From a bacterium (GTDB lineage Bacteria; Patescibacteriota; Microgenomatia; JAMCZE01): a stretch of DNA of 64,000 nt. The stretch covers positions 44,370-108,369 of the forward strand of contig JAKBJL010000001.1 in the NCBI GenBank assembly GCA_021836035.1, written 5' to 3'. The notes beneath the pieces were generated by a model. That model was not told the DNA's origin. It saw only the letters and a program-made list of their open reading frames with translations, and did not search any database. Made by a program: the position numbers and the translations under genes. This document shows positions 3,440 through 64,000 of this stretch, piece after piece; position 1 is the first letter of the stretch, and every line of letters starts with the position of its first letter.

Positions 3440-3531
3440 TATTGGTATAATAACAGAGAAATCTTCCCGGTCCCATAGGCAAAGGGCGGATTTACCTACC
3501 GAAGCTTTCGCGAAGGTAGGCCGCGTTGGCC

Positions 3532-3602
3532 GGGCCGTTAGCACAGCGGTAATGCACCGCATTCGCATTGCGGGGACGGGGGTTCGATTCCCCCACGGTC
3601 CA
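3532..3602 (+). tRNA. tRNA-Ala (anticodon CGC)
   Basis: Manual fold gives a 7-bp acceptor stem with the G3:U70 Ala identity pair and D-loop GG. Anticodon stem CCGCA/TGCGG with loop TTCGCAT. T-arm GGGGG-TTCGATT-CCCCC, discriminator A. CCA is not encoded. Confidence 0.75.
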
Positions 3603-3621
3603 CAGTTCAATTTTCAAACCC

Positions 3622-3780
3622 CCAAAAAGGGTAACAACCGCTGGGGGCCCAAAAGCGTTGCGCGGCCCCTCTCTTTTAAATAACCAGAGGAAAAATAGAA
3701 AAAGGGTGAGCTCCTGAAGCGATACCGTCGTCATAGCGAAGCCAGCGTTTTGGGAATGGGTGGCTGGGACCCTTGCCTTG
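3622..3780 (+). repeat. MITE-like intergenic repeat, copy A (divergent subtype shared with copy C)
   Basis: Begins AAAAGGGTAACAACCGCTGGGGGCCC and ends GGGTGGCTGGGACCCTTGCC. Positions 3644-3774 are nearly identical to 7567-7696. Confidence 0.7.
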
Positions 3781-4952: not shown

Positions 4953-5125
4953 TTAAAAAGGGTGGTAACTTACGGTGCGTGGCTTCTGGCAACACAAAAG
5001 CGTACGAACCCTCTCCCTTTTTGTTAAATCTGTTAAATTTACCAAGATATAGATACAAGAAACAAGACGCCAGGGGTGTATGGGAGTTAGCTTATCGGGG
5101 CTGCGGGTTGCCAGGGTCCTTGCCT
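4953..5125 (+). repeat. MITE-like intergenic repeat, copy B
   Basis: TTTAAAAAGGGTGGTAACTTACGG ... ACACAAAAGCGTACGAACCC ... GGGGCTGCGGGTTGCCAGGGTCC. Flanked by TTTAAAAA on the left and TTAAAAA on the right. Confidence 0.7.
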
Positions 5126-7353: not shown

Positions 7354-7549
7354 ATTTAGGCTTCTATATTAGCTATAACACCAGAGCCACTTCTTGTCAA
7401 GTCCGATAGTAAATATCATCCTGTATTATTATATATCCGATAGTTATTATAAAGAGGAGAAGGGCATAATAACGCCCAATTTCTAATATCAAGTTCCTAA
7501 TTTCTAATTGTGGACAAGTTGGGGATATACTTCTCTCTTTAGTTTTAAG

Positions 7550-7700
7550 GGGTTAACAGCCGCCGGGGGCCCAAAAGCGTTGCGCGGCCCCTCTCTTTTA
7601 AATAACCAGAGGAAAAATAGAAAAAGGGTGAGCTCCTGAAGCGATACCGTCGTCATAGCGAAGCCAGCGTTTTGGGAATGGGTGGCTGGGACCCTTAAAA
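7550..7700 (+). repeat. MITE-like intergenic repeat, copy C (near-identical to copy A)
   Basis: 7567-7696 matches 3644-3774 almost base for base. Confidence 0.7.
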
Positions 7701-16209: not shown

Positions 16210-16304
16210 TACTAGCAATAAATGCCGAGAAATGGCTGGAAAATAAATAGAATAATTTACGCGAATTAAAAACGAATTCACACGAACACTTTGATTTTAA
16301 AAAG

Positions 16305-16450
16305 GGTGGTAACCAGCGGGGAGCCCCATTAGGCGTATGAGCCCCCTCTCCATTCGCAAGAGTAGAAAGACTTCAACTAAAAAGGAAAGTGACTAAACCA
16401 GTCGTGTGGGCTAAATAGCTTGGTTGGGACCGCTGATTGCCGGGGCTCCT
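16305..16450 (+). repeat. MITE-like intergenic repeat, copy D
   Basis: TTTTAAAAAGGGTGGTAACCAGCGGGG ... GGGACCGCTGATTGCCGGGGCTCC. TTAAAA on both flanks. Confidence 0.65.
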
Positions 16451-23514: not shown

Positions 23515-23672
23515 TTTAGAAAGGGTGCCAACCACCGAGAATCCCAAAAACACATGCGTATCCCCCTCTTTTAAATAACAAAGGGGAAAGAGAATAGAAT
23601 AAAGAAAAACTTTTAAAAGAATTGTCATGGTGGCTAACCGGCTTTCGGGGGTGGGTAGCTGGCGGGATCCTT
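23515..23672 (+). repeat. MITE-like intergenic repeat, copy E (divergent)
   Basis: TTTTAGAAAGGGTGCCAACC ... GGTAGCTGGCGGGATCC, flanked by TTGAATTAAAA. Confidence 0.6.
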
Positions 23673-24847: not shown

Positions 24848-25039
24848 CTACCGCATTTTCAGTTTTGCTTCACACCCGGCGCAGGGATCGGTCAGGGGGG
24901 TTAACTCCAATATTCTCATGCGGCTGTTAATTTGCTCCTGGTAAAAATCCGTCCGGTCCCTTTGCTGTCCAAGGTTTTCCGTTAAATATTTTAGGCGAAG
25001 GCATTTCCGGGGATTGCAAGCTTCCACTTTTTCGGCCAT
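24848..25039 (-). CDS. small putative zinc-ribbon protein (63 aa, CxxxxC...CxxC)
   Basis: Four Cys arranged as two pairs. Directly downstream of recF. Confidence 0.35.
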   Translation of the reverse strand: MAEKVEACNPRKCLRLKYLTENLGQQRDRTDFYQEQINSRMRILELTPLTDPCAGCEAKLKMR

Positions 25040-28417: not shown

Positions 28418-29380
28418 CTAGAGCAATTTCATCTGTTCTTTGTCTTGCACATCCACGGTTTTGCCGTCGTCTGCGCCCCCGCGTTGCCCTTTATTTATCC
28501 GCTCTACCAAACTCTTAAATCCCAGTTTCTCCCGCATGTATTTCGTCCCCGCCGACCAGTCGATACTTTCTAGTCGCGCTTTCCCGGGGTCTAAACTAAC
28601 TGGAGCATCACAAGCGATTGTAGCTAACTTTTTACTTATCTGGGCATCTAACGCCCCCCGGGTTAACTTTTCCGCGAGTTTTTTATCCTTTGCGGCAATT
28701 TCTGGCATATTAGCATAAAGGTTCTCAAGACTTTGATATTGGGCGATCAATTTTTCCGCAGATTTGGGTCCGATTCCGCGGACGCCGGGATAATTGTCTG
28801 ACGGATCTCCTTTTAAGGCTTTGACGTCGGCCCATTGCGCGGGTTCCACACCAAATTCTTCCCTGACCATCCGCGCAGTATAAATCTTGGTTTCCGAAAG
28901 CCCCCTCACCGGAATACAAACCATGGTATTCTCATTGATCAACTGCAGCATATCTCTGTCACCGCTTACTATTATCGTTTCTAGCCTCTGGCCCCCAGCC
29001 CCTAACCCCCCCGCATTTTTGGCCAGCGTCCCGATAACGTCGTCCGCCTCATAGCCCGCCATCTCAAAATGCTCCACCCTCATCGTTTCCAAAAGTTCAT
29101 GGAGCAGCGCGATTTGGCTGGATAAACCGTCAGCCATCTCCGGACGTTGGGCCTGGTAGCGTGCATAAATCTTTTGCCTAAATGTCGGCGCGGGAAGGTC
29201 AAAGGCGACCGCCAGGTATTGCGGTTTTAAATCCGTAATGACCCGCAAGAGCATACCGAGGAACCCATAAACAGCGTTTACCGGTATACCTCCTGGCCCG
29301 GAAAGGGGCGGAATTGCGTGGTACGCCCGGTGTAAAATCGCGTGTCCGTCAATCAATAATAAGCGGCCATTATCCGGCAT
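28418..29380 (-). CDS. 5'-3' exonuclease / flap endonuclease (Pol I N-terminal domain-like)
   Basis: N-terminal PIN-like LLLIDGHAILHRAYHA. H3TH region with GVRGIGPKSAEKLI. Start taken at MPDNGRLL. Confidence 0.8.
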   Translation of the reverse strand: MPDNGRLLLIDGHAILHRAYHAIPPLSGPGGIPVNAVYGFLGMLLRVITDLKPQYLAVAFDLPAPTFRQKIYARYQAQRPEMADGLSSQIALLHELLETMRVEHFEMAGYEADDVIGTLAKNAGGLGAGGQRLETIIVSGDRDMLQLINENTMVCIPVRGLSETKIYTARMVREEFGVEPAQWADVKALKGDPSDNYPGVRGIGPKSAEKLIAQYQSLENLYANMPEIAAKDKKLAEKLTRGALDAQISKKLATIACDAPVSLDPGKARLESIDWSAGTKYMREKLGFKSLVERINKGQRGGADDGKTVDVQDKEQMKLL

Positions 29381-29580
29381 ACAGCGGTTAGTATACCTTA
29401 GTTTTAACCGGGGTGACACCCGACAGGAGCCCATAAAAAATGTCTCCGGGCATCTCTCTCTAAATAGGTTTACATAAATTAACTTTTGAAAAAGATTCTA
29501 AAAATTGATTGGCTGTTATGGCGAGGAGGGTTTTGGGGGCTATTGGGTGGTATGACCCGAATTATAAATTATGATTTTAA

Positions 29581-31506
29581 TTATTTTTCCGCTATCGCCA
29601 GTGCAACTTTGGGGTGGCCCATGATTTTTTCAAACTCTTCCCCTTCTAATGTTTCCCTGGCGATGAGCGCCTCCGCTACTTTGTCCAGAAGCTTCTTATT
29701 CTTTTTAAGAATATCCGTAGCTAGCTGCATACCCTCATCTAACAGCCGTTTTATCTCCTGGTCAATCCGGCCCGACATATCCTCGGAAATTTTCTGCGGC
29801 TCCTGGTAAAAGCGCCCCATAAAAGAATCCAGATGGTCGCCGAAATTGACCGGTCCCAAATTGGACATCCCGAATTCCGTCACCATTTCCCGGGCAATGG
29901 AAGTCGCGTTTTGGATATCGGCAACCGCCCCGGTTGTAACATCATTAAAGATTATTTGCTCCGCCACCCTGCCCCCCATCATGGCGGCAATTTGCTCTAA
30001 AAGATGTGATTTGGTCTCATGCAGGCGGTCCGCCTCGGGCGGATTAAAAGTTTGTCCCAAAGTCATCGCCCGGCTGACAATGCTTACCCGGTGTACGGGA
30101 TCCAAATGCGGCAATTCATGGATCACAACCGCATGCCCGGCCTCATGGTAAGCGGTCATCTTGCGGTCCAAATCGGACTGCAGCCGTTTCTTTTCCGGCC
30201 CCAACTTCACCTTGGTAGCCGCTTCCTCAATATCGATGGGATCAATGCTTGTCTTGCCTAACCGCGCGGCGAGAATTGCCGCTTCGTTGAGCATATTTTC
30301 TAAATCCGCACCGGAAAAACCGACAGTCCGCTTGGCAACCTTATCCCAATTTACCTCCGGGGTAAAAGGCTTACCGCGCATATGAATCTTTAAAATAGCC
30401 AGACGCCCCTCTTTGTCCGGCAAGTCAAGACTTACCCTCCGATCAAAACGCCCCGGACGGATCAAGGCCGGATCCAGGACGTCCGGGCGATTTGTAGCCG
30501 CCATGACAATCACGTTTTCGTTGGGAGCAAAGCCGTCCATTTCTACGAGGATTTGGTTTAGTGTCTGCTCCCGCTCGTCATGCCCGCCGACCAAACCCAT
30601 GCCCCGCTGCCGGCCGATCGCATCAATCTCATCAATAAAAATAATTGCCGGGGCGGCTTTTTTTGCCTGGGCAAAAAGATCCCGGACCCGGGAGGCACCG
30701 ACACCAACCAGCATTTCCATAAACTCGCTGCCCGCCATGGAGAAAAACGGGACCCCAGCTTCCCCGGCTACTGCCTTGGCAAGCAAAGTTTTTCCCGTTC
30801 CGGCCGGGCCGATCAATAAGACTCCTTTAGGCGTGCGGGCCCCGAGCAGCTGGTATTTACGGGGGCTCTTGAGAAAATCGACGACTTCCGTAAGTTCCTG
30901 CTTTGCTTCGTCCACCCCGGCGACATCGGAAAAAGTCACTTTCGGTTGGTCTTTTGTGTAGGGTTTAGCCCGTGAGCTGCCGAAAGACATAATGGAATCC
31001 TGGGCTCCCCGCGCCTGTCGGAATACCCAGAAGAAAAATACTCCCATAAGCACTAAAGGCAAAATATTGGACAGGATATTTATCCAATTGTTTGATAGTG
31101 AGGTATCCTGAACGGTTATTTTCGTACTGTCAGGATTAATCCCGGCCGCTTCGAGCGTCCGGATAAAGGATTCGTCGCTTTCTTTGCGGGAAACCGCCGT
31201 CTGGCCGTTTTTATACTTAATCGTCAGGGTATTATCAGCAACGGAAACCGAATCAACCTTCTGATCCTTGATGTCCTGTAAAACTGTCGAAAGCGGCTTA
31301 TTCTCCACGCTGGCCGGAGGCTTGACAAAGGAAGCAAAGATCGTTAAGGCGACAAAGGCAATAAAGAGGTAAAAAAGAAAATCCTTGAAAGAAAAATGGA
31401 ACCGCAGCTCCATCTTCTTTATCGGTTTCTTCCCGTTACCCTTGCCGTTGCTATTACCCCCCGTATTGCTTCCTCTCCCCAGTATTTTTGGTATGGATAA
31501 TTTCAT
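29581..31506 (-). CDS. ftsH: ATP-dependent zinc metalloprotease FtsH
   Basis: Walker [12 protein letters not shown] region, HEAGHA zinc site. Gly/Asn-rich low-complexity N-terminal tail. ATG at 31506 preferred over the TTG at 31533. Confidence 0.9.
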
Positions 31507-31516
31507 ATACCTTAAT

Positions 31517-31665
31517 TTTAAAAAGGGTGACAATTAGCGCGGCACCCTAAAAACGTACGTACTCCCTCCCTCTTCGCTAAATAAAACAATTCTCTTAAGG
31601 AAAAACAAACGGGTTGGTTGTATGGGCGAGTCGGCTTATTGGGACTGCGAGCTACCAGGACCCTT
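31517..31665 (+). repeat. MITE-like intergenic repeat, copy F (starts about 10 nt from the ftsH ATG)
   Basis: CTTAATTTTAAAAAGGGTGACAATTAGCGCGG ... GGGACTGCGAGCTACCAGGACCC. Confidence 0.65.
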
Positions 31666-31668
31666 AAC

Positions 31669-32016
31669 TCACCTTACCACCGAACCAGTTACTACATCCT
31701 CATCGAAATTATACAGGACTGCTTTCTCGTCTGAGGCGACCGCCAGAACCATCCCCGCGCTCTCGTATTCTTTCTCTCCGATCTTAAACCTTTTCGGTGC
31801 CAAGTTTACCACAAATGCCAACTTTCTGCCGGCCAACTTTTCCGGTGGATACCAAGGCTTTATCCCCGCACAAATGGTTCTTTTTCCGAGTTCCACACCA
31901 AAGTCCACTACCATCCTGACCAATTTATCGCTGCCCTCAACAGCCCCGCTCTCCACTACCTCCCCGACCCGTAAATCCAGTTTAGAAAAATCCGCGTAAT
32001 CAATTTGTGGTTTCAT
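31669..32016 (-). CDS. free-standing tRNA-binding domain protein (CsaA/Trbp111/EMAP-like OB fold)
   Basis: DLRVGEVVE...KL....VDFG....R.I..GI motif of the MetRS C-terminal/CsaA family. Overlaps the trpS stop by 17 nt. Confidence 0.75.
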   Translation of the reverse strand: MKPQIDYADFSKLDLRVGEVVESGAVEGSDKLVRMVVDFGVELGKRTICAGIKPWYPPEKLAGRKLAFVVNLAPKRFKIGEKEYESAGMVLAVASDEKAVLYNFDEDVVTGSVVR

Positions 32017-34560: not shown

Positions 34561-34629
34561 CGCGGGGTAGTGTAAAGTTGCATGGAAGGCTCATAATCTT
34601 CCGGTCCTGGCGCGATTCCAGGCCCCGCA
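34561..34629 (+). tRNA. aberrant tRNA-like sequence, anticodon CAU; possible pseudo-tRNA
   Basis: 7-bp acceptor stem with a C1xA72 mismatch. 6-nt D-loop without GG. Anticodon stem GAAGG/TCTTC with loop CTCATAA. T-arm CCTGG-CGCGATT-CCAGG lacks T54-Psi55. Discriminator A. Confidence 0.3.
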
Positions 34630-34684
34630 ACAAGGAGCGCGAAGCGCAGCTCGGTCCCGAGCTTGTCGAGGGACACTTCATTAT

Positions 34685-37715: not shown

Positions 37716-37787
37716 GCCAAGGTAACTCAGTGGTAGAGTGCCGCCCTCATAAAGCGGTTGTCGGGAGTCCGATTCTCCCCCTTGGCA
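37716..37787 (+). tRNA. tRNA-Met/Ile2 (anticodon CAU), elongator type
   Basis: Acceptor GCCAAGG/CCTTGGC, D-arm ACTC-AGTGGTA-GAGT, anticodon loop CTCATAA, T-arm GGGAG-TCCGATT-CTCCC, discriminator A. TATAAT lies 9 nt upstream. Confidence 0.8.
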
Positions 37788-38132
37788 CTAAAAAATAAGG
37801 TTTAGCCACTTTTGCCAGTTGGGAATATTTATCGGCTTGGCTTCCGGGGTTGCCGCTAAAAGTTCCGGGGGGATAATAACGATATCCTCCCCTTCTTTAA
37901 CCCAATTAAGTTTATCCCGGGCCTGTTCTTCGATAAACTGGGGCGTTTGCACTTTGGCCGCTTCCTCCTTTAGCTTTTCATTTTCCGCCGCTAATTTATC
38001 TACCTCCGCCTGGGCATCGGTTACCTTTTTCCCCGCGCCCAAGAGGCCGATGGTCGCCTGGACTGTTGCGACAATAAAAAATAACCCCAAAATGATGACC
38101 AAAAGACGAACCCGTCGGTGTCCCATAAGCAA
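37788..38132 (-). CDS. ftsB: septum formation initiator family protein (FtsB/DivIC-like)
   Basis: N-terminal TM then coiled coil (DAQAEVDKLAAENEKLKEEAAKV). Length 114 aa. Confidence 0.7.
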   Translation of the reverse strand: MLMGHRRVRLLVIILGLFFIVATVQATIGLLGAGKKVTDAQAEVDKLAAENEKLKEEAAKVQTPQFIEEQARDKLNWVKEGEDIVIIPPELLAATPEAKPINIPNWQKWLNLIF

Positions 38133-38226
38133 CTACTATGTACCCCTAGACCCTTTACATCTTTATCTCCCCCTGCTATTATAGGGGCCTAGAATTGCAC
38201 CTGCGCTCTCTCAGGCTACAAGCTTT

Positions 38227-39072
38227 ATGCACGACTGGCAGAAAAAATTTCTCGAATACTTAAAATCAAAATCCCGGGCCACGGCTACCGTCATCGCCTA
38301 CGGTAAAGATATCGGTCAGCTCTTAGAGTACTTGGAACAGCAGGGAAAGTCAAACCTGGCGGAAATTACGACTGCCGATTTAAACGGTTTTTTGGGGAAA
38401 CTGGCCAAAGAAAACTACACTCCGAAATCGATCAGCCGCAAAATCAATTCCCTGAAAACTTTTTTCCGCTTTTTGGCAGCCGAGAAAGTAATTGCCGATA
38501 ACCCCGCCGCCGGCATCTCTCATCCAAAGTTCGAGACCAAACCCCCGCGGATTCTCTCCCCCCTGGAATACCGGGCGCTCCGCGACGCTTGCCGCGATGA
38601 CTTTAGAATTGCCGCCGTGGTAGAACTTTTGCTCCAAACCGGCATGCGCATCGGAGAATTAGCCGCCCTAGAGCTAGATAGCGTCAACGAACACGAACTG
38701 AAAGTCCCCCCGATTGAAGGGCACCCGGAAAGAACCGTTCCGTTAAATAAAGCCGCCAAGGGTTCGCTCGATCGCTACCTCTCTATCCGCCCCAGGGTAA
38801 AATCACCCGCCCTTTTTATTACTAAAACCGGCCGGCCGCTGCTTATTAGAAACATCCGCACGGCGATTGACCGCTACTTCCGCATCGCCGGGATCAAAGA
38901 AGCCAAAGTCAACGATCTGCGGCACACCTTTATCGCCCACCACCTGGCCGCCGGCGCTTCCCCGGTTCTGGTTTCCCGCCTGGTCGGACATAAAAGAATA
39001 GCCACGACGGAAAAATATCTGGAATTTATTAAAGACATGCCCGCGGAGAAGATTAAACTGGAAGAGCTCTAA
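38227..39072 (+). CDS. tyrosine site-specific recombinase, XerC/XerD family
   Basis: N-terminal SAM-like core-binding domain. Catalytic R..(K)..HxxR..H..Y region: DLRHTFIAHHL and GHKRIATTEKYL. Confidence 0.85.
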   Translation: MHDWQKKFLEYLKSKSRATATVIAYGKDIGQLLEYLEQQGKSNLAEITTADLNGFLGKLAKENYTPKSISRKINSLKTFFRFLAAEKVIADNPAAGISHPKFETKPPRILSPLEYRALRDACRDDFRIAAVVELLLQTGMRIGELAALELDSVNEHELKVPPIEGHPERTVPLNKAAKGSLDRYLSIRPRVKSPALFITKTGRPLLIRNIRTAIDRYFRIAGIKEAKVNDLRHTFIAHHLAAGASPVLVSRLVGHKRIATTEKYLEFIKDMPAEKIKLEEL

Positions 39073-41061: not shown

Positions 41062-43437
41062 TTATAGGTGAGAACGGGCTGATATTTCCGCCTCGACCGT
41101 CCGGACATCCCGGCCGTATTTCAGGGCCGAAAGTTCTTTGATCATGCCCGCGACGCGGGGATTACGCGACTTATTGATCCGCTCAAAGTCATGGTTGATT
41201 TCGATACTGAACGGCGGCAGGGGTTCGTTATCAACAACCGTCTTAACATAGGCATTGAAAGCTTCCACCTTCAAAAGGTCCTGCTCGTTAAAGGTGGGGG
41301 TATATTCATGGGCCAAAAACTGAGCATCGTTCACCCCGGTCCGAAAAGTAATTTTCGTCCCGACATTGCCGAAGACCGCGTTTCTGACCTCCTCCTCCAT
41401 TTGGGAAATAAACTGGTTGGCGACCGTCAAATTCAGGCGGTATTTGCGAGCCTCGGAAAGAATGGTGGCAAAATCCGGGGTAGCAAAATTCTGAAACTCG
41501 TCAACGTAAAGATAAAAGTCCCGCCGCTGCTCCATGGGAACATTGGTCCGGCTCATGGCGGCGGTTAAAATTTTCGGAATCAACAAGAGCCCCAGGAAGT
41601 TGCTGTTCTCTTCCCCGATAAGGCCCTTGGCCAGGTTAATAATGAGAATTTTGCCTTCGTCCATTACCTGCCGGAAATCAAAAGAGCTTTTGGACTGCCC
41701 GATCATATTGCGCATCAGTTTGTTCGTCGTAAAGCGACCGAATTTAGAGACAATATAATCTAGGACTTCGCTTTTGTGGAACTCGGCAGTCTGGGCGATT
41801 TGGTCGGTCCAATAACGACGGATAATCGGGTCAGAAACTTTGGGCAATAATTCCTGGACATAGGTCGGATCGGTCAGCGCTCTTTGCACCTCGATAAAGG
41901 TTGTCCCCGGCTGGACCATAACCGTAAGCATCGCGTTTCTGATATTGTGTTCCAGACGGGGGCCCACGATACCGGTCTGATGGGGGTCATACAGTTTGTA
42001 AAACAGGCCGATAATCGAAGTGACGATATAATGCTTCTGCTCCTCGGTATAGGCCTCCATAATGTTTAAACCCATGGGCCGCGCGGTGTTGCTGGGATCA
42101 AAATAGATAACGTCTTCCGCTCTTTCGGGGGGCATCTGCTCCAAGATGGTTTCATAAGTATCGTGGGGATCAATAAAACAAACCCCCTTGCCGGCGCGGA
42201 TATCCTGCAAAATCATCTGGGACATAAGAAGCGATTTGCCGGTACCGGTCGCGCCGACGATATAGACATGTTGCCTCCGGTCGTCGTCGGAAATATAGAC
42301 CGGCCGCTCGTCCCCGCGGTAAACGGATTTCCCGAGATAAAGTCCGCTGCTGGGAATTCCCTGGGGAGCCGGCGCCCGCTTGGCATTAAGCCAATAAATA
42401 TGCGGGGTTTCGACAGCCTTATTGGGGAAATGAAAGAGGGTGGCCAGTTCTTCCGTCGTCAAAACACCCCCAAATTTCAGCATGGGCTGGTAACGGTAGA
42501 CGAAATCCGTCATGAAGTTACCTTGTACCCAGATCTTATCTTTGGTAAAGCCGTTAAGCTCCCCGTTAAATTGCTCAAAAGCTGCTTTAATGTTTCCTAA
42601 AATCATCTTGGCATCCGCCCGGGTTTTTGCCGAGACAACTATTCTTAACGAGAAATTAAAGCCCGGTTTGCCGGTTTTATTCTCGATAGTTTCCAAAGTT
42701 TTAGCGTCCACATTAAATTTAGCCTTTTCCGGATCGGCCTCATTCTTCTTGGTCCGGGAAATATATTTTTTGCCCAGGCTGCGCCACTTATTTTCGGCCG
42801 GGGAAATTAAAAGTTGGATTGCTGCCCCCTCCCCTTCCCCCAGCTTAGCCAGGGCTGAGGTAATCACGGATATGGGGTCAACCGCCAGGTCCTTATAGGT
42901 TTTAAGCGGGAAGTAATAGGAGGAGCGCAGCTTTAACGACAGATAGGCCACTTCCCCGTCTTCGGAAAAGATATTGTAGTCTTCCACCTGTTTGACAATA
43001 GCCCCGGGGTAAGTCCCGTGGATTTGTTTTTCAACCAGATCTTTGACCTGTTCGGAGCAGGAAATATAAAAACGGATGTTCTCGTGTTCCGCGACAATTT
43101 CCAAAGATAAATGTTCCTGGGGGGTTAAAAATGGCAACTTCCACATGGGGCCGCCCTTTTTCAAAGAGTAAAGGGAGGTAAAAAATTGCTCCATGGCGTC
43201 AATTTTTATTTCGTTTTCCCTGGGTACGGCTACCTGTAATAAAACAAAGTCCAGGGCATGCTCTTCGCGTTTACGCCACTTAATAAACTGATAAAACAGA
43301 TAAAGGAAAAGCGCTCCGGCGGCAACAAAAAGCAGCAAAACTACCAAAATGACGGCAAATTCTACCAAGAGGGCCTCGAAATTAGAGAAGAATTCGAAAC
43401 CGGGAGCGGCAGGATACATACTACAATGATAGCACAA
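41062..43437 (-). CDS. T4SS-type P-loop ATPase with N-terminal TM anchor (VirB4/VirD4-TraG-like, FtsK/HerA superfamily)
   Basis: One long hydrophobic N-terminal segment, Walker A VYIVGATGTGKS, Walker B FYLYVDEFQNF. 791 aa. Confidence 0.7.
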   Translation of the reverse strand: MCYHCSMYPAAPGFEFFSNFEALLVEFAVILVVLLLFVAAGALFLYLFYQFIKWRKREEHALDFVLLQVAVPRENEIKIDAMEQFFTSLYSLKKGGPMWKLPFLTPQEHLSLEIVAEHENIRFYISCSEQVKDLVEKQIHGTYPGAIVKQVEDYNIFSEDGEVAYLSLKLRSSYYFPLKTYKDLAVDPISVITSALAKLGEGEGAAIQLLISPAENKWRSLGKKYISRTKKNEADPEKAKFNVDAKTLETIENKTGKPGFNFSLRIVVSAKTRADAKMILGNIKAAFEQFNGELNGFTKDKIWVQGNFMTDFVYRYQPMLKFGGVLTTEELATLFHFPNKAVETPHIYWLNAKRAPAPQGIPSSGLYLGKSVYRGDERPVYISDDDRRQHVYIVGATGTGKSLLMSQMILQDIRAGKGVCFIDPHDTYETILEQMPPERAEDVIYFDPSNTARPMGLNIMEAYTEEQKHYIVTSIIGLFYKLYDPHQTGIVGPRLEHNIRNAMLTVMVQPGTTFIEVQRALTDPTYVQELLPKVSDPIIRRYWTDQIAQTAEFHKSEVLDYIVSKFGRFTTNKLMRNMIGQSKSSFDFRQVMDEGKILIINLAKGLIGEENSNFLGLLLIPKILTAAMSRTNVPMEQRRDFYLYVDEFQNFATPDFATILSEARKYRLNLTVANQFISQMEEEVRNAVFGNVGTKITFRTGVNDAQFLAHEYTPTFNEQDLLKVEAFNAYVKTVVDNEPLPPFSIEINHDFERINKSRNPRVAGMIKELSALKYGRDVRTVEAEISARSHL

Positions 43438-43484
43438 CAGTTGGATTTAATTTCTAATTTCTAATGGCTAATTCTTTTATATTT

Positions 43485-43646
43485 CTTTTAAAAGGGTGGT
43501 AACTCGCGGGGCGTTGTCTTTGACAACGCAAAAGCGTGCGAACCCCCACTTTTTTTGCAAGATAAAGTAAAAATCTATTTAAGAAGGGGGGGGCTAAGCC
43601 AGCCGCGCGGGTGAGTTGGTTTATGGGGGCCGCGGGCTACACCCCT
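43485..43646 (+). repeat. MITE-like intergenic repeat, copy G
   Basis: TTTTAAAAGGGTGGTAACTCGCGGGGCGTTGTCTTTGACAACGC ... GGGGGCCGCGGGCTACACCCC, then TAAATTAAGG. Confidence 0.65.
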
Positions 43647-46234: not shown

Positions 46235-46264
46235 CAAGGCCAAGCCGCGATACTTTGATCTTAG

Positions 46265-46403
46265 AAAGGATAGTAGCCCGCGGGGCGCCCCAAAAACGTA
46301 CGAACCCCCCGCTTTTGCTAAATAAGATTATCTTTGGGAAAAACAAATAAAGTTAGCCGTGTGGGTGAGTTAGCTTCTTGGGGCTGCGGGTTACCGGGAC
46401 CCC
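46265..46403 (+). repeat. MITE-like intergenic repeat, copy H
   Basis: GGATAGTAGCCCGCGGGGCGCCCCAAAAACGTACGAACCCCCC ... GGGGCTGCGGGTTACCGGGACCCC, then AAATTAAGAT. Confidence 0.65.
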
Positions 46404-46586
46404 AAATTAAGATAAAAGCATAAACCAGATCCCGGTTGCCGCCTAAAAATAAATAGGGCCAGTTTATAACCTTAAGTTTTTCGGGGGGCCTTATTGCCCC
46501 AACGCACAGCTGAGAAAATAATGTAATAAGGGTGGCTCATCGCCATCTTTGCGGGGGACTTTGCAAGGGGCGGTATAACAAATCTG

Positions 46587-51045: not shown

Positions 51046-52110
51046 TTATGCCCTGCTGCCCCGCTGCCCTACCAAAATCACTTCTTCAATTAATCTGTTC
51101 GTATACCCCCACTCGTTATCGTACCAGGCGATAACTTTCAGCAGGTTGCCGCCGACCACGTCGGTCAGTGACAAATCCACAATGGCAGAGTGCGGGTTGC
51201 GGATAACGTCTGAAGAAACCAGCGGGTCAGTTGTGACCTCCAGAATATTCCGGTAGCGCTCTGATCGGGCCGCTTCCGTCAACACCTGGTTTACTTCCTC
51301 TTTGGTCGTATCCCTTTTTAAGACAAAGGTGAAATCGGAAAGGCTGCCGACTATTGTTGGTACGCGGATGGATAAACCGGTAAATAGTCCCGCCAGTTCC
51401 GGAACGGTTTCGGCGGCTGCCCGCGTCGCCCCCGTGGTTGTCGGCACAATATTTTGTGCTGCCGCCCGGGCCCGGCGGTAATCTTTGTGCCCCCCGTCCT
51501 GCAATTCCTGGTCCGAAGTATAAGAATGAACCGTCGTCATCATCGCTTTCTCTACCCCGAATTTTTCGCTGATAACCTGAGCCACCGGAGCGATACAATT
51601 AGTCGTACAGGAAGCATTGGAAACAATTTGTTCCGTTGTCGCCGCGGGGTCTAAGTTGACCCCCAGGACATAGGTTCTTACGGTGCTGTCCTTGGCCGGA
51701 GCCGAAAGGATTACTTTTTCGGCGCCCGCTTTTAAATGCCCCGCAATTTTATCTGCCGTCGTAAATACCCCGGTGCATTCCAGAACCACGTCCACGTCGT
51801 GCTTTTTCCAGGGTAGCATCTCGGGATTTTTCTCCGCGTAAAAAGGAATTTTGTTGCTATCAATAATCAGATTCCCCAGCAGCTTTGGTATTTCCTGGCT
51901 ATTCTCCGTTTGCTGTTCGCAGCTTACTGCATGATCTTTTAATATCCCGTACGCCGTATCATATTTCAGTAGATACGCCCAGCCCTGGATATCCGTTGAG
52001 CTCCCCCCATTGATGGCCACCAGATCGATCTGCTCCGTAAATCGCTCCAGAATTACCCGGTGGGCAATTCTCCCGATTCTTCCGTAGCCGTTAATCGCAA
52101 CCTTGATCAA
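51046..52110 (-). CDS. gap: glyceraldehyde-3-phosphate dehydrogenase (TTG start)
   Basis: INGYGRIGR NAD-binding motif and active site SCTTNCIAP. Confidence 0.9.
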   Translation of the reverse strand: MIKVAINGYGRIGRIAHRVILERFTEQIDLVAINGGSSTDIQGWAYLLKYDTAYGILKDHAVSCEQQTENSQEIPKLLGNLIIDSNKIPFYAEKNPEMLPWKKHDVDVVLECTGVFTTADKIAGHLKAGAEKVILSAPAKDSTVRTYVLGVNLDPAATTEQIVSNASCTTNCIAPVAQVISEKFGVEKAMMTTVHSYTSDQELQDGGHKDYRRARAAAQNIVPTTTGATRAAAETVPELAGLFTGLSIRVPTIVGSLSDFTFVLKRDTTKEEVNQVLTEAARSERYRNILEVTTDPLVSSDVIRNPHSAIVDLSLTDVVGGNLLKVIAWYDNEWGYTNRLIEEVILVGQRGSRA

Positions 52111-52118
52111 ATTTGGAA

Positions 52119-52139
52119 TCTGAAATCTGAAATCTGAAA
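52119..52139. repeat. tandem heptanucleotide (TCTGAAA)x3, 8 nt upstream of the gap start codon
   Basis: Read directly. Additional TTTCAAATT motifs lie in the same AT-rich spacer. Confidence 0.5.
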
Positions 52140-52227
52140 TGAGTGTTTAAAACATTTCAAATTAAATAATTTCAAATTGTTTAAATTAAAACTTGAAATT
52201 GTGAATTTGCCAAAATAAATTGAGTAA

Positions 52228-55831: not shown

Positions 55832-55852
55832 TTAAATTATTTCCTTAGTTAT

Positions 55853-56009
55853 TGAAGGGGTGGCAACTCGCGGGGCGCTGCCCCCGACAACACAAAAACC
55901 TACGAACCCCCCTTTTTGCTAAATAAAATAAGATTATCTCCGGGAAAAACAAATAAAGTTAGCCATGCGGGTGAGTTAGCTTCTTGGGGCTGCGGGTTAC
56001 CAGGGCCCC
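55853..56009 (+). repeat. MITE-like intergenic repeat, copy I
   Basis: GGGGTGGCAACTCGCGGGGCGCTGCCCCCGACAACACAAAAACCTACGAACCCCCC ... GGGGCTGCGGGTTACCAGGGCCCC, then AAATTAAGAT. Confidence 0.7.
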
Positions 56010-56022
56010 AAATTAAGATAAC

Positions 56023-56647: not shown

Positions 56648-58900
56648 ATGGGCAAAAACAAGGCCGGCAAGCATCAAAAGCCCAAATTGCCAGCGGTGGT
56701 CTGGCCCGCCCCGAAAAAATTATGGCGGAAGGTCCCGCCGGCTTTTTACCTTCCCTTAGCCGCCATCACCACGGCTTTACTGATCACCCTGGTTTCTCTG
56801 GTTTTTGTTTTTAAAGATCTTCCGGCCCCCATGAATCTCGACAGCAAAGCCATCCCGCAGACCACAAAGATTTTAGACCGCAACGGCCGCCTGCTTTACA
56901 ATATTTTTGTTTCCGAAAACCGCACGATTATTCCCCTTTCCCAAATGCCCAAAACCATACAACAGGCTACGATTTCCATTGAAGACAAAGATTTTTACCG
57001 CCACGGAGGAATTGACCTTATCGGAGGGATTGTCCGCGCAACCAAAGACATGCTTCTTTATCATCACCTGGAGGGCGGATCGACCATTACCCAACAGCTG
57101 ATTAAGCTCTCGCTGTTAACTCCCGAGCGAACGCTGACCCGCAAAATCAGAGAGGCAATCCTCGCCTTTTGGGTCGAGCGCCTTTACTCTAAAGACCAGA
57201 TTCTTTCTATGTACTTAAACCGGGTGCCTTATGGAGGCACCGCTTACGGCGTCGAAGAGGCCGCCCAGGTGTATTTCGGGAAGCATGCCAAGAACTTAGA
57301 CCTGGCGGAGTCGGCGCTTCTGGCGGGTCTTCCCCAGGCCCCGACCTATTATTCTCCCTTCGGGACCGATCCGCAGCGCGCCGTCGACCGCCAGCACCAG
57401 GTTTTAACCCGCATGCTCGAAGACGGCTATATCACGACGGCACAAAAAGGAGCAGCGGAAGCAGAAGAACTCCATTTCGCTTCCCCCTCTGCCGGCATCA
57501 AAGCCCCCCATTTCGTCGCTTATGTCAAAGAACAATTAGTAAAAAAATACGGCGAACAACAGGTCGAGCAGGGCGGTTTATGGGTAACCACAACTTTAGA
57601 TCTGGATTTACAGCAGGCGGCCCAGGCTTCCCTCTCCGCCCAGGTAGAAAAACAGGCCAATTTAAAAGTGGGCAACGGCGCGGCTTTGGTGACCCGCCCG
57701 GAAACCGGCGAAATCCTGGCCATGATCGGGTCCAAGGATTATTTTGCTTCCGATTCCGGCAAAGTCAACGTCACCCTGGCAGAACGCAGCCCCGGTTCCA
57801 GTATCAAACCCCTGAATTATGCTTTGGGGTTCCTCAACGGCAAGACCACTCCGGCGACCGCTTGGATAGATGGACCCTTCTGCTTTCCGCCCTACTTGGG
57901 TAAAAGCTATTGCCCGACCGATTACGACGGCCGCTTCCACGGCGTTGTCCAGACCCGCTTTGCTTTGGGCAATTCCCTGAATGTTCCGGCGGTCAAAGAG
58001 CTCGCCCTTAACGGCATTGACGATTTTATTGCCACCGCTTCGGCCATGGGCATTACTACTTTCACCGATAAAAACCGCTACGGCTATTCCTTAACTTTGG
58101 GCGGCGGCGAGGTCAAGATGGTCGATCTGGCCACCGCTTTCGGCGTTTTTGCCAATGCCGGCCGGCGCCAGGATCTCTTATCAATCTTAAAAGTGGAAGA
58201 CAGCAGGGGCAACGTGTTAGAAGATAACACCCCCGACCTTCTGGAAATTAAAAAGGAAGAGTTAAAAATAACACCGTGGGACGGGAGCAGGCCTTGGGTG
58301 CCGCACGGCAGCTATGTCCTGCCTTCGGAGGTCACCTATCTTATTTCCCATATTCTCCTGGACGATTCCGCCCGGGCGATGACTTTCGGCGCCGGCTCCG
58401 TTTTAAATATCCCCGGGCATACCGTTTCCGTCAAAACCGGCACTACCGAGGACAAACGGGATAATTGGACCATCGGTTATACCCCGTCTTTTCTGGTCGC
58501 CGTCTGGGTCGGTAATAACGACAACTCCCCCATGAGCCCGGCTTTGGAGTCGGGCAACACCGGGGCTGCGCCTATTTGGCATGAAATTATGAGCTACGTT
58601 CTACGCGGGAGCCCCAATGAGTGGCCCGCTAAACCCGAGAATGTTGTCTTCACGGAGGTCTGCAGTTTGTCCGGTTTGCTTCCCGATCACGGCTGCCCCC
58701 AGCGCGGGGAATATTTTATTAAAAATTTTGTCCCTACCCAGAAGGATCATCTCGATAAACATAAGGTTTTCGTTTACAAAGACTCCCATAAAGTTCCGGG
58801 GCCTAATGACAAACCCACTCCAGATCAACTAACCGAAGAGGAACACACCTTTCTCTCAGATCCCCTGCAAAAAGACTTCTGTGTCGATTGCGCCCTGTGA
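56648..58900 (+). CDS. class A penicillin-binding protein (bifunctional GT51 transglycosylase/transpeptidase)
   Basis: N-terminal TM. GT51 motifs EDKDFYRHGGID and GGSTITQQL. Transpeptidase SxxK (SPGSSIKP), SLN and KTGTT. Confidence 0.9.
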   Translation: MGKNKAGKHQKPKLPAVVWPAPKKLWRKVPPAFYLPLAAITTALLITLVSLVFVFKDLPAPMNLDSKAIPQTTKILDRNGRLLYNIFVSENRTIIPLSQMPKTIQQATISIEDKDFYRHGGIDLIGGIVRATKDMLLYHHLEGGSTITQQLIKLSLLTPERTLTRKIREAILAFWVERLYSKDQILSMYLNRVPYGGTAYGVEEAAQVYFGKHAKNLDLAESALLAGLPQAPTYYSPFGTDPQRAVDRQHQVLTRMLEDGYITTAQKGAAEAEELHFASPSAGIKAPHFVAYVKEQLVKKYGEQQVEQGGLWVTTTLDLDLQQAAQASLSAQVEKQANLKVGNGAALVTRPETGEILAMIGSKDYFASDSGKVNVTLAERSPGSSIKPLNYALGFLNGKTTPATAWIDGPFCFPPYLGKSYCPTDYDGRFHGVVQTRFALGNSLNVPAVKELALNGIDDFIATASAMGITTFTDKNRYGYSLTLGGGEVKMVDLATAFGVFANAGRRQDLLSILKVEDSRGNVLEDNTPDLLEIKKEELKITPWDGSRPWVPHGSYVLPSEVTYLISHILLDDSARAMTFGAGSVLNIPGHTVSVKTGTTEDKRDNWTIGYTPSFLVAVWVGNNDNSPMSPALESGNTGAAPIWHEIMSYVLRGSPNEWPAKPENVVFTEVCSLSGLLPDHGCPQRGEYFIKNFVPTQKDHLDKHKVFVYKDSHKVPGPNDKPTPDQLTEEEHTFLSDPLQKDFCVDCAL

Positions 58901-61493: not shown

Positions 61494-61956
61494 CCTATAG
61501 TTATAGGGCATGAAAATCAATTCGGCTTTCTATGCCCGCTTATTGCAGCTGGTCGTTTTGCTCGTCGTTCTGCCGATAACTGTTTATCTGGCAAACCACG
61601 AAACTTCTTTATATGCTAATTCCTTACCGCTGGCTTCCTGGCTACTGCACTAGCCGCTTATCCGCAAATTCATAACCAATTTTCGCGCATGCCTTAATTT
61701 TACGCAGGTCGGCGCGGATCGGGCGCCCAAAAAACAGGTTATAAGCCCCTCCTTTTTAACTAAACCGGGGAGAAGCAACGTCTAAAAGAGAACGTTCCCG
61801 AAATTGTCGTTGTTCCGGGGCGCATGGGATTTTTTGAGCTGATTCGTGACGGGACTTTAGCTAGGATTATGATAGGCAAATTTCCCCATTGATAATTAAA
61901 AAATCTTCATCAATAATGCGCGTAGATCTTGGGAAGCATACCGACTCGTCCCGGGT

Positions 61957-64000
61957 ATGCCGCACAAAAAAGATGAATCCTTTCTACATCTAGGGGTCAT
62001 CAATTTCGTCCGGAAGTTTTTATATACTGCCGGAACTCCGTTATTTTTCGCGCTGCAAATTCTCGCCTGGACTGTTCTCTGGCTCGCCGATCAATTTCTC
62101 CAGATTGCCCGGGCGATTCTCTTTATTATCTTCGGGATCCTGGAAACTATCATTTGGTTTGGGGAACTTTTAACCAATTTCTTTTCCGGGAAATTTTTGC
62201 CGGTATTCCATAAGCTTCTCCACCCCCCGAAAGTCATTTATCGGCACCGGGGAAAAATCGCGGAAAAAATTTTCAGCTCTGCCGCTACCCTGCGTGACGG
62301 TTTTACTCAAATCATCCCGGCCTTCCGGCAGCAATTCCGGCTTCGGCTTTCTTTTTTATCGGCTTTCCGCCTGCCAACCCTTAGCCTCACCCATTTAACC
62401 CTCCCCCGACGCCGACCCGCTCCCGTCCGCTTCCGCAAAACAAAACCCGGACGTCCCGCGCTCTTTTCTCGCAGTTTCCTTTTGGTCCTCTTGGGTTTTG
62501 CCTTTTGCTTCTTTTTACTTTTCCTCCCCTTCTGGATTATCTCTACTCTAGGCAAACTCCCCGATCCGAGACTTTTGGCCGTCCGCGATATCCCCTTGTC
62601 AACAAAAATTTATGACCGCAACGGCGACCTCCTTTACCAAATTTATGCCGACGAAAACCGCACTCTTGTTTCTCTCGATACCCTTCCCCCATATGTAGCC
62701 CAGGCAACAGTGGCGATTGAAGATAAAAATTTTTACCACCACCCCGGTTTTGACCCCCAGGGCATCATCCGAGCTGCCCTTGCCAACACCAACGGTGAAA
62801 GCGTCCAGGGCGGATCAACGATCACCCAGCAGCTGGTAAAAACCGTTTTCCTTACTCCGGAAAAGACCCTGGAACGCAAAATCAAAGAGATTATTCTTTC
62901 CTTTTGGGCGGAGCGTCTCTTTTCCAAAAAACAAATTCTCACCATGTACCTAAACCAGGTAGCTTATGGCGGAGCCGCTTACGGTATCGAAGAAGGAGCC
63001 CGTACCTATTTCGGCAAGCCAGCCCACGATCTTTCTCTCCCCGAAGCCGCTTTGTTGGCCGGATTGCCCTCCGCCCCCTCGGCCTATTCCCCCTTCGGGG
63101 CCCACCCGGAAATGGCTAAAACCCGGCAGCGCCAGGTGCTTGCCGCCATGCGGGAACAGGGGTATATCACCCCTGAAGAAGCCGTCACGGCGGAACAGAC
63201 GGAACTGCGTTTTGCCCGACAGGCAACGCTTATCAAGGCGCCTCATTTCGTCATGTATGTCAAAGATTATCTCGTCAAAAAATACGGCATCCGGGCAATG
63301 GAAAGGGGCGGCCTGGAAGTTACTACCAGCCTGGATTACCCGACCTACGAAGCAGTAGCTAAAATGCTAAAAGACGGCGTGGAAGCGCAGAGAGGTTTAA
63401 ACGTCGGTAACGGCGCGGCTTTGGTTACTAAACCCAAAACCGGGGAAATTCTGGCCATGGTTGGCTCTATCGACTTCTTCAACCTGGCCCATGACGGCAA
63501 TGTCAACGTTACTATCGCTCCGAGAAGCCCCGGTTCCTCCATCAAGCCCCTCAATTACGCCCTGGCTTTGGAAAAAGGTATTCTTACGCCCTCTACCATT
63601 ATTTCCGACTCGCCGGTAATTTACCGCACCGCCGGGGCGCCGGATTATATTCCCGTCAATTACGACAACCGTTTCCACGGCCAGGTTACCGCCCGGGTCG
63701 CCCTCGCTTCTTCCTATAACATCCCCGCGGTTAAAGTCCTGGAAAAAAACGGCTTGCGCAACTTCCTGGATTTTGCCCGCAAAATGGGCATTACCACCTG
63801 GACCGACCCCAGCCGTTTTGGTCTGGCCTTAACCCTGGGCGGCGGCGAGGTAACTATGGTCGATATGGCTAACGCCTATAGCGCTTTTGCCAACGGCGGC
63901 AGTAAAGTAAATTTAAATCCGGTGCTTCTGGTCAAAGATTACCGCGGCCAGATTTTAGAAGACAACCGCAGTTATACCAAATCCGAGCAGGTTATTTCCG
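61957..64000 (+). CDS. second class A PBP paralog with a roughly 180-aa N-terminal extension; frame disruptions near 62460-62580; 3' end beyond the window
   Basis: From 62581 the sequence reads VRDIPLSTKIYDRNG...EDKNFYHHPGFD...GGSTITQQL...SPGSSIKP...KTG in one frame. The upstream homologous segment (GKLPDPRLLA) is in another frame, and a Met-initiated frame from 61957 is in a third. This ORF is not in the supplied ORF track. Confidence 0.65.
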   Translation, partial: MPHKKDESFLHLGVINFVRKFLYTAGTPLFFALQILAWTVLWLADQFLQIARAILFIIFGILETIIWFGELLTNFFSGKFLPVFHKLLHPPKVIYRHRGKIAEKIFSSAATLRDGFTQIIPAFRQQFRLRLSFLSAFRLPTLSLTHLTLPRRRPAPVRFRKTKPGRPALFSRSFLLVLLGFAFCFFLLFLPFWIISTLGKLPDPRLLAVRDIPLSTKIYDRNGDLLYQIYADENRTLVSLDTLPPYVAQATVAIEDKNFYHHPGFDPQGIIRAALANTNGESVQGGSTITQQLVKTVFLTPEKTLERKIKEIILSFWAERLFSKKQILTMYLNQVAYGGAAYGIEEGARTYFGKPAHDLSLPEAALLAGLPSAPSAYSPFGAHPEMAKTRQRQVLAAMREQGYITPEEAVTAEQTELRFARQATLIKAPHFVMYVKDYLVKKYGIRAMERGGLEVTTSLDYPTYEAVAKMLKDGVEAQRGLNVGNGAALVTKPKTGEILAMVGSIDFFNLAHDGNVNVTIAPRSPGSSIKPLNYALALEKGILTPSTIISDSPVIYRTAGAPDYIPVNYDNRFHGQVTARVALASSYNIPAVKVLEKNGLRNFLDFARKMGITTWTDPSRFGLALTLGGGEVTMVDMANAYSAFANGGSKVNLNPVLLVKDYRGQILEDNRSYTKSEQVIS

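Follow-up and report, generated by a model that had tools for sequence, protein, structure and literature searches.

A probable MITE-type family of palindromic elements in the intergenic spacers of a Gottesmanbacteria-like genome and its junction with ftsH

A 64-kb stretch of DNA from an uncultivated member of the Patescibacteria, referred to here as the window, carries a family of dispersed palindromic repeats of about 150-190 nt each, of which ten intact copies and one decayed copy (c1 to c11) all lie on the minus strand. We consider this family likely to be a lineage-restricted, non-coding insertion element resembling MITEs (miniature inverted-repeat transposable elements); as such, the element is of a common kind and what is unusual is its host. 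One of the copies, c7, makes up almost the whole of the 162-nt spacer between the gene of a tRNA-binding-domain protein (tRNA_bind) and ftsH, which raises the question of how ftsH and the other genes located downstream of such copies are expressed.

The window was matched to contig DAHXMT010000002.1 of the metagenome-assembled genome (MAG) GCA_027371575.1, from which the deposited gene calls were taken. The host is a Microgenomates/Gottesmanbacteria-like MAG. Its nearest FtsH homologs come from Gottesmanbacteria-like Patescibacteria, the best being 74% identical; no FtsH of 75-99% identity was found among 5.8 billion proteins, and this collection holds no closer relative. Over the parts that they share with the window, further assemblies of this strain match it at 100% identity; DNA read sets of the strain are SRR13170411 and SRR13170412. 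Approximately three quarters of the genes in the window are on the minus strand, and the GC skew is negative across its whole length, which places it in a single replichore. The typical distance between genes of this genome is 0-60 nt (about 30 bases), and within the window the element-free spacers of tandem gene pairs mostly fall in the same range.

Copies and structure of the element

The nhmmer search with a profile of five copies retrieved ten copies, all on the minus strand, with E values from 1e-61 to 5e-3. The covariance model built from ten copies gave 115-146 bits for the intact ones and added the decayed c11 (30 bits, E 2.5e-5), and a 28-nt degenerate core pattern had five matches where none was expected. 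An earlier analysis of the letters of this DNA (hereafter the sequence-only reading) had noticed a MITE-like repeat family, including copies F, G and I which correspond to c7, c8 and c10; with ten copies found by one method and eleven by the other, this family is real. Its density is about one copy per 6 kb (Table 1). The copies are highly diverged, with a mean column identity of 57-61%, except for two recent pairs, c1/c3 (98% identical) and c9/c10 (94% in the core). The identity of c1 and c3 spans exactly the unit from stem to stem, and the pair is a recent duplication.

The stem-to-stem unit measures 140-165 nt, and inclusion of the outer repeat and the tail brings it to about 170-190 nt; it is non-coding, since only spurious short open reading frames (ORFs) are called over c1 and c3. 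Its termini form a GC-rich stem of 14 bp in which AAGGG..GGyAACC.GC pairs with GC.GGTTrCC..CCCTT, and additional imperfect pairing gives the unit as a whole the form of a rod-like hairpin. In the terminal stem 86% of cells were paired, a share that fell to 43-58% on sliding the partner by 1-3 columns; both sides had changed in 15 of the 22 predicted pairs, and none of 500 shuffles matched the observed values. Matched inverted repeats, whose two ends must both fit one transposase, could account just as well for the co-variation between the arms. Outside the stem there is a weaker AT-rich inverted repeat (yTTAATTT … AAAyTAAG), with an AT-rich yTTAAT motif placed a few nt ahead of the 5′ GGG. A T-run and then a tail, TAAAAyTAAGG(TAT), come after the stem, exclusively on the 3′ side of the sense strand; at least four T residues follow the stem CCC in half of the ten copies. 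In c7 the 5′ arm spans 31665-31647, the 3′ arm 31540-31523, the T-run 31524-31520 and the tail, TAAAATTAAGGTAT, 31520-31507. The tail is equally conserved in the copies that face no start codon (c1, c4, c5, c9 and c11) and therefore provides no evidence of local selection for expression. When single copies were folded, 8 of the 10 minimum free energy structures were closed by the terminal stem and took the shape of an irregular rod with an AT-rich apex, and G·U outnumbers A·C by 26 to 13 in the sense strand of the terminal stem. Two local hairpins, HP1 and HP2, had been considered as separate terminators; they are superseded by the end-to-end stem, which has the support of the alignment.

Outside the window no trace of the family was detected in the collections searched. 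Neither nhmmer nor the covariance model found a copy in about 0.9 Mb of sequence around ftsH of 80 relatives. Degenerate-pattern scans of a genome collection and of a metagenome collection (the latter also with a two-arm pattern) gave no matches, and neither did blastn against plasmids and phages. In the whole window Rfam 15 at the gathering score reported tRNAs only, and at a permissive E-value the best matches to c10 were at chance level (15.5 bits at most). A literature search turned up no published account of small palindromic insertion elements from Patescibacteria.

The copies mislead gene callers, which placed the start of an exonuclease gene inside c6 and spurious ORFs over c1 and c3, and they break assemblies: two contigs of the same strain, from other assemblies, end inside c1 and c10. 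The deposited minus-strand ORFs of 80 aa (3492-3734, over c1 and tRNA-Ala) and 50 aa (7504-7656, over c3) are probably spurious. Between the ribonucleotide-reductase stop codon and c9 (46405-46586) we noted GCCACCCTTATTAC with a small GC hairpin followed by AAAAACTTAAGGTTAT; both parts resemble the 3′ arm and tail of the element and may be what is left of an older copy. Four occurrences of the exact decamer ATTAGAAATT were noted on the minus strand, in two pairs at 7478-7508 and 43449-43465, each just downstream of a copy (c3 and c8, respectively) and before the next gene.

Table 1 Positions of the element copies and associated features in the window (the transposase gene lies outside it and is given in its own coordinates)
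Feature	Position	Strand	Context
c1	3626..3774	-	9 nt past M23-peptidase stop; faces 3′ end of tRNA-Ala(+) 3532-3603
c2	4957..5121	-	12 nt past rho stop; M23-peptidase ATG 4860 is 96 nt downstream
c3	7548..7696	-	21 nt past radA stop; next minus-strand ORF start ~190 nt downstream
c4	16301..16450	-	10 nt past thioredoxin stop; convergent with plus-strand ORF ending 16209
c5	23520..23672	-	16 nt past recF stop; convergent with NAD-kinase-like gene (+), whose stop 23513 overlaps the c5 tail
c6	29390..29560	-	20 nt past ftsH stop; exonuclease ATG 29380 follows
c7 (F)	31507..31665	-	between tRNA_bind stop TGA 31671-31669 and ftsH ATG 31506; covariance model 136 bits
c8 (G)	43480..43646	-	3 nt past stop of 166-aa gene; ATPase gene follows
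c9	46253..46404	-	182 nt past ribonucleotide-reductase stop; 3′ end faces possible 99-aa plus-strand ORF
c10 (I)	55843..56010	-	12 nt past LOG-family gene stop; deoC ATG 55831 follows
c11, decayed	61690..61870	-	30 bits; tail TAAAATTAAGG retained; between plus-strand genes, antisense to both neighbours
ftsH	29581-31506	-	Pfam FtsH_ext, AAA, Peptidase_M41
tRNA_bind	31669-32016	-	115 aa; upstream of ftsH
TAAAAT, −10-like	31515..31520	-	in c7 tail; offset 8 from ftsH ATG; no TGn
TAAGG, Shine-Dalgarno-like	31510..31514	-	in c7 tail; 3 nt ahead of ftsH ATG
IS1595-family transposase	L084 8532-9377		0.6-1.4 kb left of window start; 281 aa; Zn_ribbon_IS1595 and DDE_Tnp_IS1595

Insertion into spacers and position relative to genes

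The gene order trpS–tRNA_bind–ftsH–exonuclease found in the window is also present at the ftsH locus of the closest relative (L004), where FtsH is 74% identical; orthology of the neighbours was checked by their identity, which is 61% for tRNA_bind and 62% for the exonuclease (320 aa in both). The tRNA_bind–ftsH and ftsH–exonuclease spacers measure 36 and 17 nt in L004 against 162 and 200 nt in the window, and c7 and c6 are therefore insertions. In other Gottesmanbacteria-like relatives the tRNA_bind–ftsH spacer is 2-9 nt long, and spacers in relatives other than L004 range from 2 to 59 nt. Sequence comparison thus documents insertion into spacers that measure 2-60 nt in relatives at two sites, and suggests it for the others. 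A TA(T) directly adjoins each of the two recognisable ends of c6 and c9 and a single end of c3, c5, c7, c8 and c10, which hints at a target duplication of the TA type; TTAA also recurs near both ends of the element. The family presents several characteristics of a MITE: short non-coding copies, terminal inverted repeats, dispersal, and evidence of insertion, the last from distant relatives.

Several observations count against this interpretation. The relative with empty sites is so distant in FtsH that exact insertion boundaries cannot be set; with no close empty sites to fix the ends, the target-site duplication is unproven. Presence/absence polymorphism is not seen among the same-species assemblies, which are identical, and the protein collection offers no closer relative. 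Copies as diverged as these would not be usual in a MITE of recent activity. A cognate transposase with matching ends was not seen among the gene calls, which take in most of the window plus about 17 kb of its flanks, the stretches of 11.5-21.7 kb and 42-50 kb being only partly annotated; the calls within the window list no transposase family. Folding energies are not clearly better than those of shuffled sequences (z from −2.8 to +0.75), and over the whole element the sense strand folds no more stably than the antisense. On account of these last two results we regard the palindrome as established and a role of the RNA hairpin as presumptive; RNA-specific structure was rejected as a basis for claiming an RNA function.

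The IS1595-family transposase encoded to the left of the window was considered as a partner of the element and rejected, as it has no terminal repeats matching it; the 12-nt identity between the IS1595 region and c7 is, by a rough estimate, what chance predicts for that amount of sequence. An integron attC-like site was likewise rejected: the arms read GGyAAC / GTTrCC and not RYYYAAC / GTTRRRY, and the flanking genes are syntenic housekeeping genes, not cassettes.

With respect to genes, nine of the ten intact copies begin 3-21 nt past the stop codon of an upstream minus-strand gene, namely those of M23 peptidase, rho, radA, thioredoxin, recF, ftsH, tRNA_bind, the 166-aa protein and the LOG-family protein. 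The distance from the copies to the downstream feature varies from 6 to 194 nt. For five of the 11 copies (c1, c4, c5, c9 and c11) the downstream neighbour is a plus-strand gene or tRNA, met at its 3′ end, and not a start codon; the 99-aa ORF faced by c9 has no Pfam match and was dropped from the gene map, and c9 was counted as tandem-minus in the tally of spacers. By that tally the family occupies none of the 11 divergent spacers; copies are present in 3 of the 11 convergent spacers, in 7 of the 38 of tandem-minus type and in 1 of the 8 of tandem-plus type. The family is linked to the 3′ ends of genes at least as much as to their starts. Because element-free tandem spacers are mostly 0-60 nt long, any intergenic insertion comes to lie close to a stop codon and, at tandem junctions, close to a start codon as well; that copies abut start codons follows mainly from compactness and does not point to promoter capture. 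The sequence-only reading had copies abutting the starts of ftsH, deoC and an ATPase gene; this stands for the first two and not for the third, and it describes a minority pattern, as c6, c7 and c10 are the only copies with a start codon no more than about 27 nt away.

Without the elements, the operon junctions that they occupy, at housekeeping genes including ftsH, rho, radA and recF, would be tight. Should the elements change termination, the processing of RNA or the use of promoters, much of the regulatory change in this organism, which has very few regulators, would stem from them.

Expression of ftsH and other genes downstream of the element

At the ftsH junction the terminal stem of c7 occupies 31522-31665, and its tail, TAAAATTAAGG(TAT), extends to 31510, or to 31507 with the TAT included. 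Two reference points served for distances, the final base of the conserved terminal stem and the end of the conserved tail; the ftsH ATG is 15 nt from the former and 0-3 nt from the latter, and the distance of about 10 nt given previously was a fair one. The ftsH leader of L004 reads AAAACTAAGGAATT-ATG. This leader (1694-1729) contains AAAACTAAGG, which equals the tail of c6 and is one base off that of c7. Either the tail mimics the native ribosome-binding region of ftsH or the element prefers such target sites. The tail was rejected as a genome-wide Shine-Dalgarno sequence: AAAAyTAAGG occurs four times on the minus strand, three of which are element tails, and it belongs to the element or to its target.

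Since no room is left between the element and the ATG at ftsH and deoC, the element is at these sites either co-transcribed, by read-through out of the co-oriented gene upstream, or the source of the promoter. The closest clade has tRNA_bind and ftsH separated by 2-36 nt, an operon-like arrangement in which ftsH lacks a promoter of its own, and the more distant Levybacteria-like relatives have their own ftsH promoter of the TGnTATACT type 6-11 nt before the ATG. The sequence of c7 speaks weakly for a promoter inside it, and read-through from the ancestral operon would be at least as likely a source of ftsH transcripts. One point weighs on the other side, as the stem with T5, if it were an efficient terminator, would block read-through to ftsH and so favour the promoter. 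The earlier assertion that any promoter or untranslated region must lie inside the element overlooked read-through; it fails for the ATPase gene, lacks support for deoC and is weak for ftsH.

The window provides a background against which such promoters may be judged. In 13 of 64 genes a TAnnnT hexamer stands at an offset of exactly 6 nt from the start; the figures for offsets 7, 8 and 9 are 4, 4 and 3 genes, and those for the others mostly 0-2. The hexamer at offset 6 is often preceded by TGn (e.g. starts 14701, 22785, 24848-25039, 43419, 53280, 56648 and 60210). This pattern suggests that leaderless mRNAs are one of the main modes of expression in this Patescibacteria genome. The sigma-70 scan of the sense strand called nothing in c1-c4, c7 or c8-c10 and only weak 9-of-12 sites in c6, and counts of promoter-like sites showed no excess over shuffles.

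The best candidate for a completed outward promoter is predicted at the junction of c6 and the 5′-3′ exonuclease gene, where GTGTCA in the 3′ arm (29419-29414) is followed after 18 nt by TATACT (29395-29390) at the border of tail and flank, 9 nt before the ATG at 29380. The deposited exonuclease start at 29434 (338 aa) lies inside c6 and is mis-called, as the ATG at 29380 gives a product of 320 aa that aligns end to end with the L004 orthologue. The stem of c10 ends at 55855, 23 nt from the deoC ATG, in agreement with the 22 nt noted before, and its tail ends 11 nt away; TAAGGA of the tail (55847-55842) is 10 nt upstream of the ATG, and no −10-like hexamer was found at offsets 4-10.

Two genes have more space. 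The ATPase gene had been assigned a start at 43437, 48 nt from the element, and the stem of c8, ending at 43491, is indeed 53 nt from this TTG; however, the deposited start, ATG 43419 (785 aa), appears the more likely one, and it lies 60-71 nt from the element (71 nt from the stem), which is not abutment. An extended −10, TGcTATCAT (TGCTATCAT, 43434-43426), is present at offset 6 from this ATG, outside c8 and 46-54 nt past its tail. A promoter-like TTGACA-17-TAAAGT (4900-4872) precedes the M23 peptidase gene, outside c2.

We favour an explanation in which the copies are MITE-type insertions into the short intergenic spacers of a compact genome. At tight tandem junctions (tRNA_bind–ftsH and LOG–deoC) the element would most likely be co-transcribed as an intercistronic hairpin, and the downstream gene would be translated by means of the Shine-Dalgarno-like TAAGG of the tail. 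At the roomier junctions (ATPase, M23 peptidase) the gene would keep its own promoter downstream of the element. Occasionally an outward promoter may arise from a −35-like sequence in the 3′ arm and a −10 completed at the tail or flank, in the manner of the 'Black' promoters of Correia elements; c6 would be the clearest instance, and TAAAAT before ftsH might be a weaker, −10-only version.

In line with the sequence-only reading, the element could be a donor of promoters: a −35-like hexamer of the 3′ arm and/or TAAAAT of the tail would form an outward promoter and drive leaderless or near-leaderless transcripts of the downstream genes, ftsH included. We hold this to be possible though doubtful. 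The leaderless design is common in the genome, TAAAAT stands at offset 8 from the ftsH ATG, c6 offers the complete arrangement described above, and the 3′ arm of most copies contains a TTGCCA, TTGTCA, TTGGCA or TTACCA hexamer; moreover, with no ftsH promoter in the 2-36-nt spacer of the closest clade, insertion of a stem with T5 would need to restore transcription, and Correia 'Black' promoters act in a similar way (PMC2649163). On the other hand, the ftsH TAAAAT has neither TGn nor a −35 at 16-18 nt, its offset is not the modal one, and the only −35-like hexamer, TTGTCA at 31533-31528, is 7 nt upstream and too close. A spacing of 18 nt from this TTGTCA leads to TATATG overlapping the ATG, so that the transcript would begin within the gene. 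The deoC gene has no −10-like hexamer, for the ATPase and M23 peptidase genes the better promoters are those outside the element, the tail is also present in the five copies that face no gene, and the sigma-70 scan was empty in c7 with no excess of sites over shuffles. Of the leaderless ftsH mRNA proposed earlier there remain the genome-wide design and a −10-like hexamer at offset 8, and what falls away is TGn, a usable −35 and the usual offset. The sequence argues weakly for promoter supply by the element, and promoter capture has partial support at most.

Other explanations and comparable repeats

The copies could instead be retained as selected modules that terminate, insulate or process RNA. 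The hairpin and T-run of the sense strand would end or attenuate the upstream transcript, or RNase III would cut or bind it, uncoupling the neighbours, and the family would be kept as the genome has few ordinary terminators. This can be put forward tentatively. The position of nine of ten intact copies 3-21 nt past a stop codon agrees with it, though the bias is marginal (mean relative spacer position of about 0.32 against 0.5, by a rough estimate about 2 standard deviations), as does the occupation of convergent spacers (3/11) and not of divergent ones (0/11), the latter absence not being significant at these numbers. The single orientation and the T-run on the sense strand only are also in its favour, but the run is intact in 5 of 10 copies and is no better kept at convergent than at tandem junctions. 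Over the 40 kb scanned in the window, short-loop hairpins followed by T residues are no more frequent than in shuffles, which fits a shortage of ordinary terminators; the same terminator scan, however, calls no copy of the element, whose loops are long, and a stem that closes about 150 nt makes a poor kinetic terminator. The excess of G·U over A·C in the sense stem has to be set against folding that is above neither the shuffles nor the antisense strand. SPRITE (PMC3184786) and Correia (PMC2649163) provide precedents. Against such a module, a strong terminator just before ftsH would be harmful.

Both functions might be joined in a portable cassette that stops one transcript and restarts another: the hairpin and T-run would end the upstream transcript, and TAAAAT/TAAGG of the tail with the −35-like sequence of the arm would begin a leaderless or near-leaderless one. 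We think this improbable. If true, the spread of the element would have cut ancestral operons such as trpS–tRNA_bind–ftsH–exonuclease into separate units in a streamlined genome.

The uniform orientation of the 11 copies has a two-sided chance probability of about 0.001 and could be due to selection relative to transcription or to a strand-specific mechanism of insertion. The window does not separate these causes, because the directions of genes and of replication are confounded in a single replichore. A strand-specific mobile hairpin of single-stranded DNA, similar to REPIN/RAYT systems (described below) or derived from IS200/IS605, would account for orientation by the direction of replication, in line with all 11 copies being on one strand of a window with negative GC skew throughout, with c11 keeping the family orientation while antisense to both neighbours, and with co-varying arms that preserve pairing. 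We judge it unlikely: about three quarters of the genes are on the minus strand as well, c11 is a single decayed copy, the ends pair with each other as inverted repeats and do not form separate subterminal hairpins as in IS200/IS605, and within the gene calls described above, with their two partly annotated stretches, there is no Y1 transposase and no member of the RAYT family.

A conserved cis-regulatory RNA (a leader or riboswitch of ftsH or deoC), or else a multi-copy gene for a small RNA that brings promoter and terminator with it, is very improbable, for although the copies are structured, sense-oriented, end in a stem and T-run and have the AT-rich yTTAAT a few nt ahead of the 5′ GGG, they are attached to unrelated genes and convergent junctions, correspond to no Rfam family, have weak folding z-scores and are absent from the same junctions in all 80 relatives, which largely refutes such a reading.

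Returning to the MITE-type interpretation, the repeats that come close to the element include the Correia elements (CREE/NEMIS) of Neisseria. These are non-coding, about 70-157 bp long (153-157 bp in the long form), and dispersed in many intergenic copies near genes; their terminal inverted repeats are able to form a hairpin in mRNA (PMC2649163). Their 'Black' promoter consists of a −35 and a partial −10 at the end of the element which some flanks complete, and a Correia element is included in or excluded from the transcript of its neighbour depending on whether a native promoter lies between them (PMC2649163). The likeness to Correia elements pointed out by the sequence-only reading seems apt as a description of how the element behaves: the c6/exonuclease junction would mimic the Black promoter, and c8/ATPase the opa case with a promoter between element and gene. 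The phyla are unrelated and the likeness is functional only, the element not being regarded as a member of the Correia family; in contrast to Correia elements, the copies in the window have one orientation, a one-sided T-run and tail, and are much more diverged. The IHF site, the RNase III cleavage and the TA duplication of Correia elements are not established for the element of the window.

The −10-like TAAAAT and Shine-Dalgarno-like TAAGG directly before the ftsH ATG recall REP2 of Neisseria, a repeat that provides promoter, ribosome binding site and ATG (PMC3184786). REP2 lies upstream of genes as a rule, whereas here 5 of 11 copies face no gene and the element is a long palindrome with inverted-repeat ends. 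Hairpin-plus-T-run repeats described in the same work (PMC3184786), which lie just past genes and are co-transcribed, also resemble the element, but the element is longer (a rod of about 150 nt) and its T-run is degenerate in half of the copies.

REPINs are doublets of repetitive extragenic palindromic (REP) sequences which form hairpins and are moved by RAYT transposases. The element is similar to them in its intergenic location, in arms that pair into one long hairpin and in the changes on both sides that keep the pairing; it differs in its longer arms and AT-rich ends, and no RAYT gene accompanies it in the gene calls examined.

Apart from the element family, three features of the window deserve mention. 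A tyrosine-recombinase (Phage_integrase) gene at 38227-39072 adjoins tRNA-Met (37716-37788), a second tRNA-Met being located at 34561-34631, and the region 37716-39072 may be an integrated element. Two paralogous genes of class-A penicillin-binding proteins (56648-58900 and 61957-64000) are 5.7 kb apart and share 72-79% DNA identity in patches. The GAPDH gene (51046-52110) has three tandem copies of TTTCAGA (52111-52150) immediately ahead of its predicted TTG start.

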